Shown: piece by piece, positions 3,457-10,186 of the stretch
How positions within the stretch are numbered: position 1 is the stretch's first letter
Layout: every line of letters starts with the position of its first letter
DNA from: a virus
Reading direction: 5' to 3' (one strand)
Virus record (IMG/VR): IMGVR_UViG_3300022413_000008
Location: 4,315 to 68,314 of that record
Length of the DNA stretch: 64,000 nucleotides
Translations under genes and position numbers: made by a program
Notes under the pieces: model-generated
What the model saw: only the letters and a program-made list of their open reading frames with translations
Told to the model about the DNA's origin: nothing
Database searches by the model: none

Positions 3457-3814
3457 ACTCACTGTAAGGACGAAGGACATCGAGAAGTTCAGTGACTTCG
3501 ATGAGGCTGAAGGAGATGTCAATGTTAGCGTCCTGCGTTGGAAAAGCGGCACCACGGTAGCGCAACCGCACATCGAAGGGGTGCCCTATGTCGGCTATTG
3601 CGGCCCAACTGGCAACTCCCCTGCCGAGCGATGGGTTTACACCGGAGTGGGTTCCCAGGTCGAAGTAATGGAACTGGTCGATGATACCTATGCGATCATG
3701 GCGCCAGTTAATGACAAGGGTCGGGTCTACAGAGACCAAATCGAAGATCAGATCAGAGAGATTGAAAAGTTTGAAGCAACCAGAAGATCAGTGATAGAGG
3801 AGATTAACAAATGA
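3437..3814 (+). CDS. Hypothetical early protein
   Basis: 125 aa ORF, coupled. Confidence 0.7.
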   Translation: MNTAYFELTVRTKDIEKFSDFDEAEGDVNVSVLRWKSGTTVAQPHIEGVPYVGYCGPTGNSPAERWVYTGVGSQVEVMELVDDTYAIMAPVNDKGRVYRDQIEDQIREIEKFEATRRSVIEEINK

Positions 3815-4650
3815 TGAACCAGGAACGAATCGAATGGATACTGGAGCTCGCTCGCTCCGTCGCCGGAAGGGAAGCACTCAACAGGATTGAGGAGATACAG
3901 TTCGGAGAAGTAGGCGAGCGAGGCTATGATAACGAGACACTGACAGCGTTCGCAAATTGGAACAGTGTCAGGGCGTGGGTAAAAGACAAGGGCTACGTTG
4001 GTGAGGAAGACAAAACCATGGAGCGTCTGGCCGCCATCTTCGAGAAGGGAGGCCTCCAGATTGAGTGGTCGGACGAATGGTCTGCTTGCGGCGAGTGCTA
4101 CAAGTATTACCGCACGTCACCGGACGGTTACGATTGGCTACCATCGCTCGTGTGGGAGACTGATTGCGATCTGGTCTGTCCCGAGTGCCTTGACCACGAG
4201 ACGTATCTGGAGAGCATCGAAGGCGACCACAACAAGGCGGTTACCTCTGATGATATCGACCCATCAGAACACGGCTATCACAAGATAGACACCGACTTCG
4301 AGACCGGCTTCCATTCGCACCAAGACGATTCTCCGGAGAAGGTAGCCAAGGCACTCGAGAAGCAAGGGATCGGTCGGTATCTATTCCAGATCGACAGCAC
4401 TGGACAGTTCGATACGAGCTGGGCAGTGTGGATTCACGAAGAGGAGCTCGAGAAATTCAAGGGCCTTGGCAGTGAGGATACCAGATTCGACCTGGGTCAG
4501 TCGCCGGCCGAAGTAATGAAGCGGGGCCTTGAACAAGCAAGCCACGAACACAAGCCGGGCTGCGTCACGGTGAACAAGATCACTCAGACCGGGTGCGAAA
4601 CCAAGTTCGTTCCGCACCAGGACTTCATCGATGGAAAGGCTTTAGAATGA
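3811..4650 (+). CDS. Conserved phage early protein with Zn-binding motifs
   Basis: 279 aa; FANWN, EWSDEWSACGEC and VCPEC. Confidence 0.85.
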   Translation: MMNQERIEWILELARSVAGREALNRIEEIQFGEVGERGYDNETLTAFANWNSVRAWVKDKGYVGEEDKTMERLAAIFEKGGLQIEWSDEWSACGECYKYYRTSPDGYDWLPSLVWETDCDLVCPECLDHETYLESIEGDHNKAVTSDDIDPSEHGYHKIDTDFETGFHSHQDDSPEKVAKALEKQGIGRYLFQIDSTGQFDTSWAVWIHEEELEKFKGLGSEDTRFDLGQSPAEVMKRGLEQASHEHKPGCVTVNKITQTGCETKFVPHQDFIDGKALE

Positions 4651-5682: not shown

Positions 5683-6855
5683 ATGAGTGATACACTAAGA
5701 CAACCCACACAAGGCGCACTGACGCCTGACAGCGCATCGGTAAGCACCTCGGAGGCGTACCGGCAATGGGCAAGCCGCCCGGAAGACGAGCGCTACAGCG
5801 ACCTCGAATCCCTGTTCGACGCATGCGCCTCACGGCGAACCCGATCACGTGAGGTTCACGTTGAAACGGACAAGCTTCAGGTCAAGCAGCATGAGGCGAC
5901 CGGCGAGCTGGTGATCAATGGCGAAACATCCGAATCGAAATGGACTCATTGGAGTTTTGGCCAGACTTGCAATCTGGTTGGGGCGCCAGCGAAATACCTG
6001 CGCGATCTTCCGGATGTCCTGATCAGAGCCAACCTGACCTACGGGCTGGCAACCCAACGGGAAACGATGAAGTTCATGACTGTCCAGCCTGATAATGACA
6101 CCGAGCAGCTCAGCACGCTGCAGGCTGTCACGTCGACTACTTACGGACGGATATGGGACGCTGACTGTGTCAAGGCATGCCAGCACATCGTGGAGCGATC
6201 CAATGGGCGGTTCCACAACCCACTGGCTTATGCGGCGGGCGACTACATGGGGCACAAAGGCACGGAGCCAAGGCCGTCAGGTCTCTACGCCTCCGATCGT
6301 GATGTGTTCATGTTCATGATCGACGGCGGCTCACTGTTGGAAGCTGGGCCTCGGGCCAAACTCAACCGGGGGTTCTTCATGTGGAACAGCGAGGTTGGCT
6401 CGCGATCGTTCGGATTGATGACGTTCCTATTCAACCAGGTCTGTGGGAACCATCTGATCTGGGGTGCGCAGGACGTAAACAAGATCATCATCCGCCACTC
6501 GTCCGGTGGGCCATACCGGTTCGAGACCGAAGGGACGCCAGCGCTGAAGCAGTTCGTGGAGGCGCCGGCTGCCCCGATTGAGGAAGTCCTCCGCAAAGCA
6601 CAAGACTACATGCTGCCTGTCCGGATGGACGGAGACGAGGAGAAGAGCATGCGTGAGTTTGTTGCGAAACGCGCCAAGTTCTCCGCCGCTGAGGTAAGGG
6701 ATGCCATGAAGTTTGCGAGAGCCGAGGAAGGCGAATGTCGCACCTTGTGGCAGCTCGTGCAGGGTTTCACTGCGTCGGCACGTGCGATCCCACACATGGA
6801 CACTCGGATCGACCTCGAGAAGCGAGCGGGCAAGCTCATGTCGTTCGCTGAATAG
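5683..6855 (+). CDS. DUF932 / phage-plasmid LGT-family protein
   Basis: RQWASRPEDERY, THWSFGQ, TYGRIWDAD, GLYASDRDVFMF, WNSEVGSRS and QVCGNHLIWG motifs. Confidence 0.85.
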   Translation: MSDTLRQPTQGALTPDSASVSTSEAYRQWASRPEDERYSDLESLFDACASRRTRSREVHVETDKLQVKQHEATGELVINGETSESKWTHWSFGQTCNLVGAPAKYLRDLPDVLIRANLTYGLATQRETMKFMTVQPDNDTEQLSTLQAVTSTTYGRIWDADCVKACQHIVERSNGRFHNPLAYAAGDYMGHKGTEPRPSGLYASDRDVFMFMIDGGSLLEAGPRAKLNRGFFMWNSEVGSRSFGLMTFLFNQVCGNHLIWGAQDVNKIIIRHSSGGPYRFETEGTPALKQFVEAPAAPIEEVLRKAQDYMLPVRMDGDEEKSMREFVAKRAKFSAAEVRDAMKFARAEEGECRTLWQLVQGFTASARAIPHMDTRIDLEKRAGKLMSFAE

Positions 6856-7002
6856 TCACTGACAACCAACTAACGACCATTGGGGAAACCAATTGGACAA
6901 CAATCGAAAGAGAAAGGCAAGCTCATGTAATTCGATGAATAGGCAGCGACAACCAACTAACGACCATGGGGGAGACCAATTGAACAACAATCGAAAGAGA
7001 AA
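6849..7002 (+). repeat. Imperfect direct repeat, about 67 bp x2, period 87 bp
   Basis: tgaatag...gacaaccaactaacgaccat.gggga.accaattg.acaacaatcgaaagagaaa at 6849-6915 and 6936-7002. Confidence 0.9.
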
Positions 7003-7005
7003 AAC

Positions 7006-7380
7006 ATGGATAATGCAGAGCTAATACTTAAACTTCTGAAGCTATTACCGAACGAAGACAACGAACAGAATCCTCAGAGCGATTCTGAGTGTGAAATGAA
7101 CCCCATCACTGGCACGGTGCTGAGATCCGTCGTTTACCCGGGTGCGAAAGTGCTGATCAGGACAGTGACCAGCTACTTCGCGGGAGTGGTGAGTGAGGTG
7201 GACGACCACTTCATCGCATTGGCACACGCTTCGTGGGTTGCTGACACGGGACGTTTCTCGGACGCGCTAAAGAGCGGGTCATTCACCGAGGTGGAGATGT
7301 ATGATCGGGCCGTGATCGTCGCCGTGGCCGCCGTGGTTGACGTGACGACCCTTCCGGAGGTTCCTGCGAAGCAGAAGTAG
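7006..7380 (+). CDS. Sm/LSm-like fold phage protein (DUF6948-like)
   Basis: KVLIRTVTSYFAGVVSEVDDHFIALAHASWVADTGRF resembles Sm1; VIVAVAAVVDV resembles Sm2. Confidence 0.7.
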   Translation: MDNAELILKLLKLLPNEDNEQNPQSDSECEMNPITGTVLRSVVYPGAKVLIRTVTSYFAGVVSEVDDHFIALAHASWVADTGRFSDALKSGSFTEVEMYDRAVIVAVAAVVDVTTLPEVPAKQK

Positions 7381-7400
7381 GACGCACGATAAAGGCAGGA

Positions 7401-7424
7401 GCAGGCCCATGCACTTGGGCCTGC
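7401..7424 (+). other. Perfect 9-bp hairpin between the Sm-like gene and the repeat array
   Basis: gcaggccca-tgcact-tgggcctgc; no U-tract. Confidence 0.8.
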
Positions 7425-7470
7425 CCTATACCGCAGCAAGGTCACTGTCACATTCATGGAGGTTTGCACT

Positions 7471-7764
7471 ATGACGTATCTAGCGAGTCGGGCATGTTCA
7501 AATGCACGGGCAGAATCAAGGTCACTGACACAGGAACTTGCGCTGTCACGGTCACGGTCACGGACAGGATCGTGGTCACTGGCATGGTCTTTCTCATGGT
7601 CACTGGAAAGGGCATGGGCACGGGCATGGTCACAGTCAAGGGCAGGGTCACAGGCAGGGTCGGAGGCAGGGGCGCTGTCACGGTCAACGACAGTGTCGTG
7701 GTCACATTCACGAACATGTTCAATGTCACTGTCATGGGCACGGCCAAGGAGGTTTCTAATATGA
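7471..7764 (+). CDS. Ser/Arg/Trp-rich mini-protein, unit 1
   Basis: MTYLASR...; ggagg upstream; stop overlaps next ATG. Confidence 0.55.
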   Translation: MTYLASRACSNARAESRSLTQELALSRSRSRTGSWSLAWSFSWSLERAWARAWSQSRAGSQAGSEAGALSRSTTVSWSHSRTCSMSLSWARPRRFLI

Positions 7765-7997
7765 CGTATCTAGCGAGTCCGTCATGGCCATCATCACGAT
7801 CGCGATCATCGCACCGGTCACGTTCAGTGGCCGGGTCAGGGCCATCATCACGATCGCGATCATCGTACCGGTCACGGTCAGGGGCATGGGCACGGTCATG
7901 GTCCCGGTCAATGACAAGGATACGGTCAGGGGTAGGTTCATGGGTAAGGTCAGGGTCACGGGCAACGTCATGTCCCGATAAGAAAGGCACGATATGA
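7761..7997 (+). CDS. Ser/Arg/Trp-rich mini-protein, unit 2
   Basis: MTYLASPSWPSSRSRSS...; aggagg upstream; ATGA overlaps. Confidence 0.55.
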   Translation: MTYLASPSWPSSRSRSSHRSRSVAGSGPSSRSRSSYRSRSGAWARSWSRSMTRIRSGVGSWVRSGSRATSCPDKKGTI

Positions 7998-8200
7998 CAT
8001 ATCTAGCGAGTCCGGATGAGCCCTGTTCGAAGGCATCAGCAAGGTCATGGACAGGGTCACGGTCAGGGGCAGGGACACGGTCATGGGCAAGGACACGGTC
8101 ATGGGCAAGGGCATGGTCATGGGCAGTGGCAGGGCCACGGGCATGGTCAAGGTCAGGGTCACGGGCAACGTCATGTCCCGATAAGAAAGGCACGGCATGA
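7994..8200 (+). CDS. Ser/Arg/Trp-rich mini-protein, unit 3
   Basis: [19 protein letters not shown]...; ATGA overlaps. Confidence 0.55.
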
Positions 8201-8394
8201 CGTATCTAATGAGTCGGGGTGCGCCCTGTTCGAGGGCATCAGCACGGATGAAGCATGGCACCCGGTCGTGGGCAAAGTCACGGACAGGTACACTGTCGCT
8301 ATCACTCACATTCGCATGGTCGTGGGCATGGTCAATCACACGGGGGTGCGCATTCAATCGGTCACGATCACTAGGTAAAAAAGGTTTGTTATGA
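8197..8394 (+). CDS. Ser/Arg/Trp-rich mini-protein, unit 4
   Basis: [17 protein letters not shown]...; ATGA overlaps. Confidence 0.55.
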
Positions 8395-8633
8395 CGTATC
8401 TATCGAGTCCGGGTGAGACCCGTTCGAAGGCAGCATCAAGGTCATGGACAGGGCCACGGTCATGGACAGGGCCACGGTCATGGGCAAGGTCGGCATGGTC
8501 AAGGTCATGGTCACGGTCACGATCAGGATCCTTGGCATGGTCACGGTCATGGTCATGTTGCCGGTCAAGGTCATGTTGCCGGTCACGGGCATGGTCACTG
8601 GCAGGGGTATGGTCGTGGTCACAGGCAAAATGA
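8391..8633 (+). CDS. Ser/Arg/Trp-rich mini-protein, unit 5
   Basis: [19 protein letters not shown]... Confidence 0.55.
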
Positions 8634-8643
8634 TTCAATGGCC

Positions 8644-8850
8644 ATGAGCGCACGAGGGGTCGAGGTTCTCTGTCAGATCTCGGCCCCTCACTTTGTCGCG
8701 GGGATTGTGGCTTGCAATGGCCGGGTTACTCATGCCGCACCGATCGTGCGTTACATGATTGGCTGGACTGGCAAGCAACTTCGGGATTACTGTAGGAAGA
8801 AATCATGGACAATCACCGTAATCACGAAGACCCAAGAAATCCGCAGTTAG
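8644..8850 (+). CDS. Conserved small phage protein
   Basis: [12 protein letters not shown]...[12 protein letters not shown]...RDYCRKKSW resembles a common phage hypothetical family; start could be 8638. Confidence 0.75.
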
Positions 8851-8933: not shown

Positions 8934-9203
8934 ATGCCGATCAAGAAGACTCAAGACCCACTCGCCCCGGACACCACGGCTGATGTGACTTGGGGCCTGT
9001 GTCCTAACTGCCAGGCCATCATCGATGAGAAAGGCACCATTATTTTCTGTGATGGGCAGCGGTCCAGATGCGCCACGTTTAAGCAAGAATTAGCCGGCCG
9101 GCTCTTCAAGCCCGAGGCCCTAGGCCAGTGTCTGAAAGTAACATCTGCTGAGTTTGACGTGCTTGAAGAGACGTGCCGGAAAATGGCACAAGAAAAAGGT
9201 TGA
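8934..9203 (+). CDS. Hypothetical protein with CxxC
   Basis: gaggag RBS before ATG 8934; WGLCPNCQ. Confidence 0.7.
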   Translation: MPIKKTQDPLAPDTTADVTWGLCPNCQAIIDEKGTIIFCDGQRSRCATFKQELAGRLFKPEALGQCLKVTSAEFDVLEETCRKMAQEKG

Positions 9204-9229
9204 CAGTTCGAAACCCCTGGCGCTATTGT
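9200..9229 (+). promoter_or_regulatory. Sigma70-like promoter, probably leaderless
   Basis: TTGACA (9200) -18 bp- TATTGT -6 nt- ATG (9236), no SD. Confidence 0.5.
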
Positions 9230-9235
9230 GCCGGT

Positions 9236-10186
9236 ATGTCTGAACACAACGATCTTGAACTCATCTCCTCGGCCGAGTCCGTCAATGCTATCGAACGGGC
9301 GCAAATTGACACGCAGGTAGCGACGGCCAAGAAATACCCTCGTTCCCTATCAGAGGCTAAAAAACGCATGCTGGACGTGGTTCAGCTAGACCAGGAGACG
9401 GCAGCTGCCTGCTTCTACACCCTTCCAACCCGACGAGGCGGGGACAAGCCTATCCAGGGGCCGAGCATCCGCCTCGCAGAGGTAGCGATAGCCGCGTATC
9501 AGAACCTGTCGGCGGGCGCACGAATCGTCGCCGATGACGGCAACTTTGTCACGGCCCAGGGAATTTGCTTCGACATGGAGAATAACACTCGGATCACAAT
9601 GGAGGTCAAGAGACGGGTAGTGGACAAGAACGGCAGAAGGTATTCAGAGGACGTAGTCGGAACCACGATGAACGCCGCTTGTGCCATCGCTCTTCGGAAT
9701 GCTGTGCTCAAGGTTATCCCTGGCGCTTTGGTTAAGCCTGTCTACGAGAAGGCATTAGAGTTTGCTGTAGGGGATCAGAAGACACTGGCGATGCGGCGGG
9801 CAAAAGCGGTGAAGCATTTCGTGCAGATGGGGGTAGAGGAACCTCGAATCTTTGCGGCAATTGGTGTCCGGGGCCTAGAGGAAATAGGGATCGAAGAGCT
9901 TACGGTTCTCATGGGGTTGCACACTGCGATTACTGATGGGGCGTCAACTCTTGACGAAGCTTTCCCGGAACTTAGCACACCCAAGAAGTCAGGGCTCACT
10001 GATCCGCCACCACCACAGCCTGCGCCGCCGCGCAAGCGCAAAACCAAGGCAAAAGCCACCGAGGCACCACCACCCGAACCTGAACCCGAACCCGAACCCG
10101 AACCCGAACCCGAACCCGAACCCGAACCAGAACCAGAAGAACTGGCAGGGACTCCTCCGGACGACGATGAACCACAACTATTTTGA
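9236..10186 (+). CDS. Probable ssDNA-annealing/recombination protein with (PE)11 linker and acidic tail
   Basis: QVATAKKYPRS and GPSIRLAE motifs; adjacent to a PD-(D/E)XK nuclease; ends DDDEPQLF. Confidence 0.65.
   Translation: MSEHNDLELISSAESVNAIERAQIDTQVATAKKYPRSLSEAKKRMLDVVQLDQETAAACFYTLPTRRGGDKPIQGPSIRLAEVAIAAYQNLSAGARIVADDGNFVTAQGICFDMENNTRITMEVKRRVVDKNGRRYSEDVVGTTMNAACAIALRNAVLKVIPGALVKPVYEKALEFAVGDQKTLAMRRAKAVKHFVQMGVEEPRIFAAIGVRGLEEIGIEELTVLMGLHTAITDGASTLDEAFPELSTPKKSGLTDPPPPQPAPPRKRKTKAKATEAPPPEPEPEPEPEPEPEPEPEPEPEELAGTPPDDDEPQLF
10073..10138 (+). repeat. Hexamer repeat (CCNGAA)11 encoding (Pro-Glu)11
   Basis: Directly visible tandem repeat. Confidence 0.95.

Follow-up and report, generated by a model that had tools for sequence, protein, structure and literature searches.

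Five short, adjacent open reading frames in the genome of an uncultured phage are very probably real, translated genes that represent a lineage-specific, diverged, five-copy version of a widespread two-gene phage module. The window, i.e. the whole stretch of 64,000 nucleotides that was analyzed, makes up most of a 73-kb contig of this phage in IMG/VR, whose completeness is estimated at about 95%. By comparing sequences between phages, we show that the five units are coding under selection at the protein level, that they are coupled, and that they are tied to a gene encoding a protein with a predicted Sm fold. When this identity is taken together with the mechanism that we propose in the last section, the whole is, in our opinion, rather likely, and it is the best explanation of the data. 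What this window adds is a diverged branch of the family characterized by MTYL/MIQL heads, a case in which the repeats decay while the coupled frame stays open, and a test of GC-independence that resolves a paradox concerning the reading frame.

The five-unit array and its surroundings

The array is marked by a 19-nt head, ATGACRTATCTANYGAGTC, exact copies of which are present at positions 7471, 7761, 7994, 8197 and 8391, all on the + strand and with spacings of 290, 233, 203 and 194. This head was found in none of 100 dinucleotide-preserving shuffles, and no further copies of it are present anywhere in the 73-kb genome. Matches at three other loci in IMG/VR (L006-L008) all lie within unrelated genes and were rejected as chance. 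At every unit junction the stop and start codons overlap as ATGA, such that the next ATG lies on the previous TGA. The units are preceded by RBS-like tracts, which are GGAGG located 8 nt 5' of units 1 and 2, and AAGG or AAAGG located 6 nt 5' of units 3-5. These heads, their positions and spacings, the overlaps, the RBS-like tracts and a 46-bp tail shared by two units had been described in the earlier note, and all of them were confirmed in the sequence. The shared tail is an exact identity between units 2 and 3 (7946-7991 = 8149-8194), which points to a recent duplication or gene conversion; unit 2 also carries an internal duplication of 54 nt (7781-7888). The features of the region are as follows.

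7006..7380, + strand: Sm-fold partner gene, encoding an acidic protein of 124 aa with a predicted Sm/LSm-like barrel
7397..7427, + strand: hairpin in the 90-nt spacer, with a 9+3 bp stem and a 6-nt loop, without a U tract
7471..7764, + strand: unit 1, 97 aa, head MTYLASR, net charge +10
7761..7997, + strand: unit 2, 78 aa, head MTYLASP, net charge +15
7994..8200, + strand: unit 3, 68 aa, net charge +9; the most regular hexamer body, with 66% alternating NCA/NGG pairs
8197..8394, + strand: unit 4, 65 aa, net charge +12; the most degenerate body, with 19% alternating pairs; frame 0 open
8391..8633, + strand: unit 5, 80 aa, 10 Trp, net charge +14
8630..8647, + strand: possible vestigial sixth head, ATGATTCAATGGCCATGA (MIQWP-stop), with an ATGA overlap with the stop of unit 5
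8638..8850, + strand: next gene, 70 aa, no family found

The bodies of the units are degenerate arrays of GGTCAN hexamers. Frame 0 is the sole forward frame that is open throughout all five units: it contains no internal stops, compared with 17 in frame +1 and five in frame +2. Its 358 codons include 131 NCA and 97 NGG codons (228 together), and the percentage of alternating NCA/NGG codon pairs, which ranges from 19% to 66% per unit, corresponds to a degenerate form of the repeat that is typical of the family. The NGG codons specify Trp, Arg and Gly in a ratio of 31:49:17, and the Ser position is relaxed to Ser, Ala, Thr or Pro (TCA 72, GCA 39, ACA 14, CCA 6). The products of 65-97 aa have net charges of +9 to +15, contain 4-10 Trp each as well as Cys, and are composed of 25% Ser, 15% Arg, 12% Ala and 8% Trp. 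The proposal that the units are paralogous, coupled genes for short cationic proteins containing Trp is therefore borne out.

The Sm-fold gene and unit 1 do not overlap and are separated by a spacer of 90 nt, unlike the situation at 34 or more of the 73 viral family loci, where partner and microprotein genes overlap by ATGA. The hairpin in this spacer was seen in both the MFE and the centroid structure, with a z-score for the whole spacer of only -2.0. When the array region was scanned, neither an internal promoter-like site nor a terminator-like site on the + strand was found, and for this reason the array probably shares a single operon with the RecT-like and PD-(D/E)XK exonuclease genes. 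These two genes, the former belonging to phrog_3657, are neighbours of the array together with a DUF932-like gene and small genes that have no assigned family. Apart from the Sm-fold gene, none of the neighbours is conserved across the loci compared.

Several other observations were made in this region. A tandem duplication of 87 nt (6829-7002), with two copies that are 90% identical, comprises the final codons of the DUF932-like gene and the intergenic sequence and stops 3 nt short of the start of the Sm-fold gene; it may copy regulatory sequence. This duplication also accounts for an apparent backward joint of 87 nt in our metagenome comparison, which was rejected as an artefact. The RecT-like gene (9173-10186) encodes about 11 Glu-Pro dipeptides near its C-terminus, (EP)n, at about 10060-10140. 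This is a second dipeptide repeat encoded by hexamers, acidic in this case, from the operon that also encodes the basic Ser-X microproteins. Finally, no stop separates the +1 (His-Gly) frame of unit 5, open from 8413, from the gene at 8638, which ends at 8850. As that gene is in frame with the +1 frame of unit 5, a gene caller could falsely extend its start to 8413, and the resulting call (8413-8850) would be 145 aa with an N-terminus rich in His and Gly.

The wider module and the branch to which the window belongs

Searches for related loci that started from the single 124-aa protein or the RecT-like protein returned no relatives; only a profile of the partner-family alignment (A1) succeeded. 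This profile retrieved 79 viral loci and 30 loci from a collection of species genomes, the latter being nearly all MAG contigs. An open reading frame consisting of a head and an (S-[W/R/G])n tail is present at or near the stop codon of the partner gene in 67 of 73 viral loci and in 26 of 30 genome loci, and by a strict count an exact ATGA overlap between partner and microprotein gene is found in at least 34 of the 73 viral loci. The microproteins of the family have a size of about 45-120 aa. They start with a conserved head of 6-17 aa, whose canonical form is M-N-x-A-I-L-R-x-G-F-D; the (Ser-[Trp/Arg/Gly])n tail that comes next is specified by hexamers of the form (TCN/AGY)-(NGG). A broader consensus for the head is M-[NT]-x-[AT]-[IVM]-[LM]-R-x-G-[FY]-[DE], and the heads are conserved as amino acids.

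The module has 230 relatives in IMG/VR and is represented by three viral clusters of 59-281 members in the ESM Atlas. The MAG contigs that carry it were binned to Planctomycetota, Actinomycetota, Pseudomonadota, Bacteroidota, Elusimicrobiota, CPR groups and others. The microproteins match no Pfam or PHROG family, the GenBank phage collection yielded a single weak match, in an uncultured phage, and a search of the literature for the module returned no description of it. Public annotation of these genes deviates in several ways. At one locus (L012, 5348-5637) the gene called at the microprotein position lies on the opposite (minus) strand, at another (L010, 5332-5568) it lies in another frame, and at the locus L009 the gene caller found one of 11 microprotein ORFs, the first. 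The family is thus systematically mis-annotated, so that microproteins are under-represented in protein databases.

The heads in the window, MTYL[AMS]S[RP], share with the consensus only the M, the T, a Leu preceded by a hydrophobic residue, and L-x-x(-x)-G as a spacing. As they match the canonical head only loosely, homology rests on synteny, composition, the partner tree and two intermediate loci, L009 and L058. Aberrant heads are also found in clear members of the family (MKITFLSA, MNACVAFAG and MGVAYINEG). The tree of partner proteins places the window next to L009 as its sister (support 94/91) and joins both, with loose support, to L015, L040, L016/L020 and L058/L073. L009 contains 11 coupled ORFs of 60-80 aa with heads of the types MIQL, MIHL and MILL. 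Its units are rich in Ser, Arg, Ala, Gly and Trp and lack hexamer repeats; frame 0 is free of stops in all of them, and every one of the remaining five frames contains 24-29 (25 in +1 and 25 in +2). The Sm-fold gene of this locus (3537-4172) is a tandem fusion that encodes two Sm-like domains in 211 aa. The four units of L058 likewise lack hexamer periodicity and have no stops in frame 0 versus 23 in frame +1. Both loci retain ATGA or GTGA coupling despite quite different sequences, and an alignment of the units (A2) reveals a common head, M-[TI]-x-L, and a recurring core, R-S-W...W-[AS]-R. The putative sixth head that follows unit 5 of the window resembles the ATGATTCAACTG (MIQL) heads of these two loci and may be the remnant of a sixth unit, or the resemblance may be a coincidence.

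Judged by its repeats, the window is an intermediate form, in which the hexamer periodicity can still be seen, unit 3 showing it best and unit 4 least. In the branch comprising the window, L009 and L058 the repeats decay to ordinary sequence rich in Ser, Arg and Trp while the ORFs stay open and coupled, and this is an argument that it is the protein that counts. The suggestion that the coupling is under selection is likewise upheld by L009 and L058, which with 11 and four units keep both the coupling and a uniquely open frame 0.

Automated copy counts per locus were noisy in GC-rich loci, and we therefore considered as arrays only those cases in which a head is repeated. Arrays with 3-11 copies, each array with heads of its own, occupy several separate places in the partner tree and require at least three origins, so that amplification of arrays has been recurrent in the family. 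It had been proposed that the array in the window is an amplifying and diversifying cassette. The recurrence of multi-copy arrays with three or more origins and the 46-bp identity speak for this in general terms, whereas amplification that is ongoing did not find support. In four DNA metagenome runs (three from sediment and one from an estuary) only fragments of the contig were found; they are identical to the window wherever they overlap it, and none of them spans the array.

The partner protein, the microproteins and their reading frame

The Sm-fold partner has a net charge of -8. Its homologues number 183, and the family alignment contains two invariant motifs, IRTVT and ASWVADTGRF. The AF2 model of the partner has a mean pLDDT of 83.5, exceeding 90 over residues 41-120, and is predicted to form the bent five-stranded beta-barrel of the Sm fold. 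In a Foldseek search against the PDB the best matches were nearly all Sm/LSm chains, with E values of about 1e-3, TM scores by target of 0.6-0.76 and rmsd values of about 2-4 A; they include 6ppq, 4c92, 1i8f, 6f9w and 6am0. The model has an extra short helix (residues 84-90) after beta-3. At the level of sequence the partner matches no Pfam or PHROG family, and no match to LSM (PF01423, Sm1/Sm2 motifs) was obtained at E <=0.1. Its neighbours in the ESM Atlas are, firstly, viral clusters of 'hypothetical proteins' and, secondly, DUF6948 and LSM. By predicted structure the nearest named family is Pfam DUF6948 (PF22253), both in the ESM Atlas (TM 0.56) and in BFVD. DUF6948 is a phage domain of unknown function, and the partner has no sequence match to it at E <=0.1.

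The microproteins, on the other hand, are predicted to be disordered. AF2 modelling of unit 3 with alignment A2 gave a pLDDT of 61, a pTM of 0.14 and no secondary structure. A Pfam search of the units detected neither an RRM nor any other domain, and no hydrophobic or signal-like segment was found in them: the highest mean Kyte-Doolittle value over 19 aa is 0.75 and GRAVY values range from -0.3 to -1.0.

These properties bear on the possibility that the units act alone as membrane-active, antimicrobial-like Arg/Trp peptides that harm the host or competitors, or aid lysis; a likeness to such peptides had been pointed out in the earlier note. Peptides rich in Arg and Trp are well-known membrane-active agents, and the charge and the Trp content of the units resemble those of indolicidin, tritrpticin and synthetic (RW)n peptides. 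The units, however, are much longer, hydrophilic and rich in Ser, with Ser, Ala or Thr at every second residue, and they lack an export signal in addition to any hydrophobic segment. Besides, their genes are located in an early recombination operon together with the Sm-fold gene, not in a lysis module, and the only neighbour conserved across about 100 loci is the acidic Sm-fold protein. Considering also the predicted disorder, the antimicrobial reading found no support, and we regard a membrane-active role as unlikely.

Which frame is translated was addressed with a GC test on 63 loci with GC contents ranging from 0.29 to 0.70. The shares of Trp, Arg and Gly among the NGG codons are 0.34, 0.36 and 0.30, and none of these shares correlates significantly with GC content (rho 0.20, 0.12 and -0.18, respectively). 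Synonymous choices, on the other hand, follow it: CGG among the NGG codons tracks GC (rho +0.51), AGG tracks it inversely (rho -0.46), and the G+C share at the Ser wobble position climbs with GC from 0.33 to 0.99. The independence of the Trp, Arg and Gly shares from GC, combined with the GC-dependence of the synonymous choices, shows protein-level selection in frame 0. If frame +1 were coding, all four bases at the variable position would be synonymous in most phages and T there would be expected to fall with rising GC, and no such fall was observed.

Some features of the codon usage are not explained by selection on the protein alone, and this leaves room for an added constraint at the level of nucleic acid. 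Family-wide, the third base is G in 94% of the Arg codons and 91% of the Gly codons, even in phages with less than 45% GC, in which AGG occurs 195 times versus 10 for AGA, and GGG 206 times versus 16 for GGA and GGT. Moreover, TCC is nearly absent (eight of 2492 Ser codons), while TCG, TCA, TCT, AGC and AGT are all used. Possible causes are the turnover of units by hexamer slippage together with changes of the first base that switch between Trp, Arg and Gly, the avoidance of self-complementary or restriction-prone CCNGG, and a constraint at the RNA level. In the extreme case, the hexamer arrays would act mainly as nucleic acid, either as a (NCA-NGG)n ligand, for example of an Sm-fold ring, or as an element in recombination or replication, and translation of the tails would be secondary. 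The G fixed at the third base of the X codons at any GC, the near-absence of TCC, and the position of the arrays next to the Sm-fold gene and recombination genes are consistent with such a role. It is, nevertheless, improbable as the main function, in view of the constant Trp, Arg and Gly shares, which contrast with a GC-dependent drift in synonymous choices, the coding of Ser by both TCN and AGY, the conservation of the heads at the level of amino acids, and the coupled ORFs without hexamer periodicity in L009 and L058.

The tandem layout of conserved heads and variable bodies also resembles loci with multiple RiPP precursors, in which a conserved leader precedes a variable core, and the units have a high Ser content and include Cys. 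They might accordingly be RiPP precursors, or else decoy or sponge substrates for a defence enzyme of the host. Both options are very unlikely: at 6-17 aa the conserved head is very short, the Sm-fold gene is the one neighbour that is conserved, with no modifying enzyme, protease or exporter kept alongside, and in contrast to RiPP precursor arrays the array in the window has no adjacent genes for a modifying enzyme, protease or transporter.

The paradox mentioned above is that codon usage on its own favours a frame other than 0. In the window, the codon log-odds of frame 0 are -0.07 to -0.25, compared with a mean of +0.18 for the long genes of the phage, whereas those of frame +2 are 0.10-0.19, which is gene-like and the best score. 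In addition, variability between the paralogues is highest at the first codon position of frame 0 (0.50, versus 0.28 and 0.30 at the others), both variable positions of the hexamer are wobble positions of the Gly-His/Gln frame (+1), and units 3 and 5 have ATG or GTG starts in this frame. A Pfam match to TrAA12 and weak PHROG matches to the His-Gly frame are due to low complexity, lie below the cut-offs and were discarded. The preference for frame +2 was set aside, given that this frame has stops and no conserved starts, and that the family favours frame 0. Across the family, the peptide read in the +1 frame changes identity (RG, LG, AG, HG), and the peptides of the alternative frames vary among phages (GR, VV/A, GL, HG). 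Only the Ser-X reading is conserved, because the alternative frames shift depending on whether the Ser codon is TCG, TCT, TCA or AGC. With these data, with the stops in both alternative frames of the window, with unit 2 lacking a +1 start and an ATG for frame +1 in only 14 of 84 arrays, and with a GC test that fits frame 0 only, the idea that the real products are Gly-His/Gln-rich (+1) or Val/Thr/Met-rich (+2) is already largely refuted, and we give it hardly any weight. The case illustrates that hexamer arrays can look coded in the wrong frame.

A possible role for the module

If the five units are translated in frame 0, as argued above, their link with the Sm-fold gene provides a starting point for thinking about their function. 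Our tentative proposal is a joint action on nucleic acid, probably RNA, in which the acidic Sm-fold protein either cooperates with the disordered, basic microproteins or buffers them. According to this mechanism, the microproteins would be co-produced with the Sm-fold protein early in infection, from the operon for recombination and replication. They would be polycationic Arg/Trp partners of the Sm-fold protein, or would be kept in check by it, and both components would jointly bind nucleic acid, most likely RNA. The assembly would be an analogue of an Sm core with an RG or RS tail, in which the tail is provided as separate polypeptides, and several diverged copies would provide both dose and an assortment of different tails. 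When a complex of unit 3 (A2) with the Sm-fold domain (residues 40-124, A1) was predicted, the score was 0.00 in a run without controls, which speaks neither for nor against binding.

Several known systems are close to what is proposed here. Sm/LSm proteins are characterized by hexameric or heptameric rings and by RNA binding. The eukaryotic proteins SmB, SmD1, SmD3 and LSm4 carry basic, low-complexity RG tails, and LSm domains are known to dock short peptide motifs, as in LSm14-4E-T and Edc3-Dcp2. The phage module has in common with these proteins a predicted Sm/LSm-like barrel and an associated, Arg-rich and disordered dipeptide repeat. It differs from them in that one to 11 downstream genes encode the repeat as a polypeptide of its own and not as a C-terminal tail, in that the repeat is Ser-[Trp/Arg/Gly] and not Arg-Gly, in the lack of a Pfam LSM match for the partner, and in its phage context. 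The units also resemble the RS domains of SR factors and RGG/RG boxes, as they are basic, are predicted to be disordered and contain alternating Ser/Arg runs. In SR proteins, an RS domain is attached to one or more RRMs and is regulated by Ser phosphorylation. The chains of the units, by contrast, contain neither an RRM nor any other folded domain, and in the family about one third of the X positions are Trp and about one third Gly, in proteins of 45-120 aa with a short conserved head.

A bolder version of the proposal, which we consider rather unlikely as it stands, is that phages of many bacterial phyla possess a split 'Sm core plus basic tail'. Early in infection, an acidic Sm-fold ring would recruit separately encoded, fast-evolving Ser-(Arg/Trp/Gly) microproteins in order to capture RNA (or ssDNA) of the host or the phage, or to condense it. 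The array described here and others like it would then be repertoires of diverged tails that result from an arms race, and the NGG-rich pattern free of TCC would reflect a constraint on the mRNA, the mRNA itself being a ligand of the ring.

The module seems to be common, yet it is missing from Pfam and PHROGs and nearly absent from GenBank phage records. As gene callers often miss the microprotein genes, or assign them a wrong frame or strand, these genes constitute a hidden class of phage genes. The role that an Sm-fold protein with separately encoded basic tails plays in bacteria could reveal a new kind of interaction between phage and host at the level of RNA or DNA.
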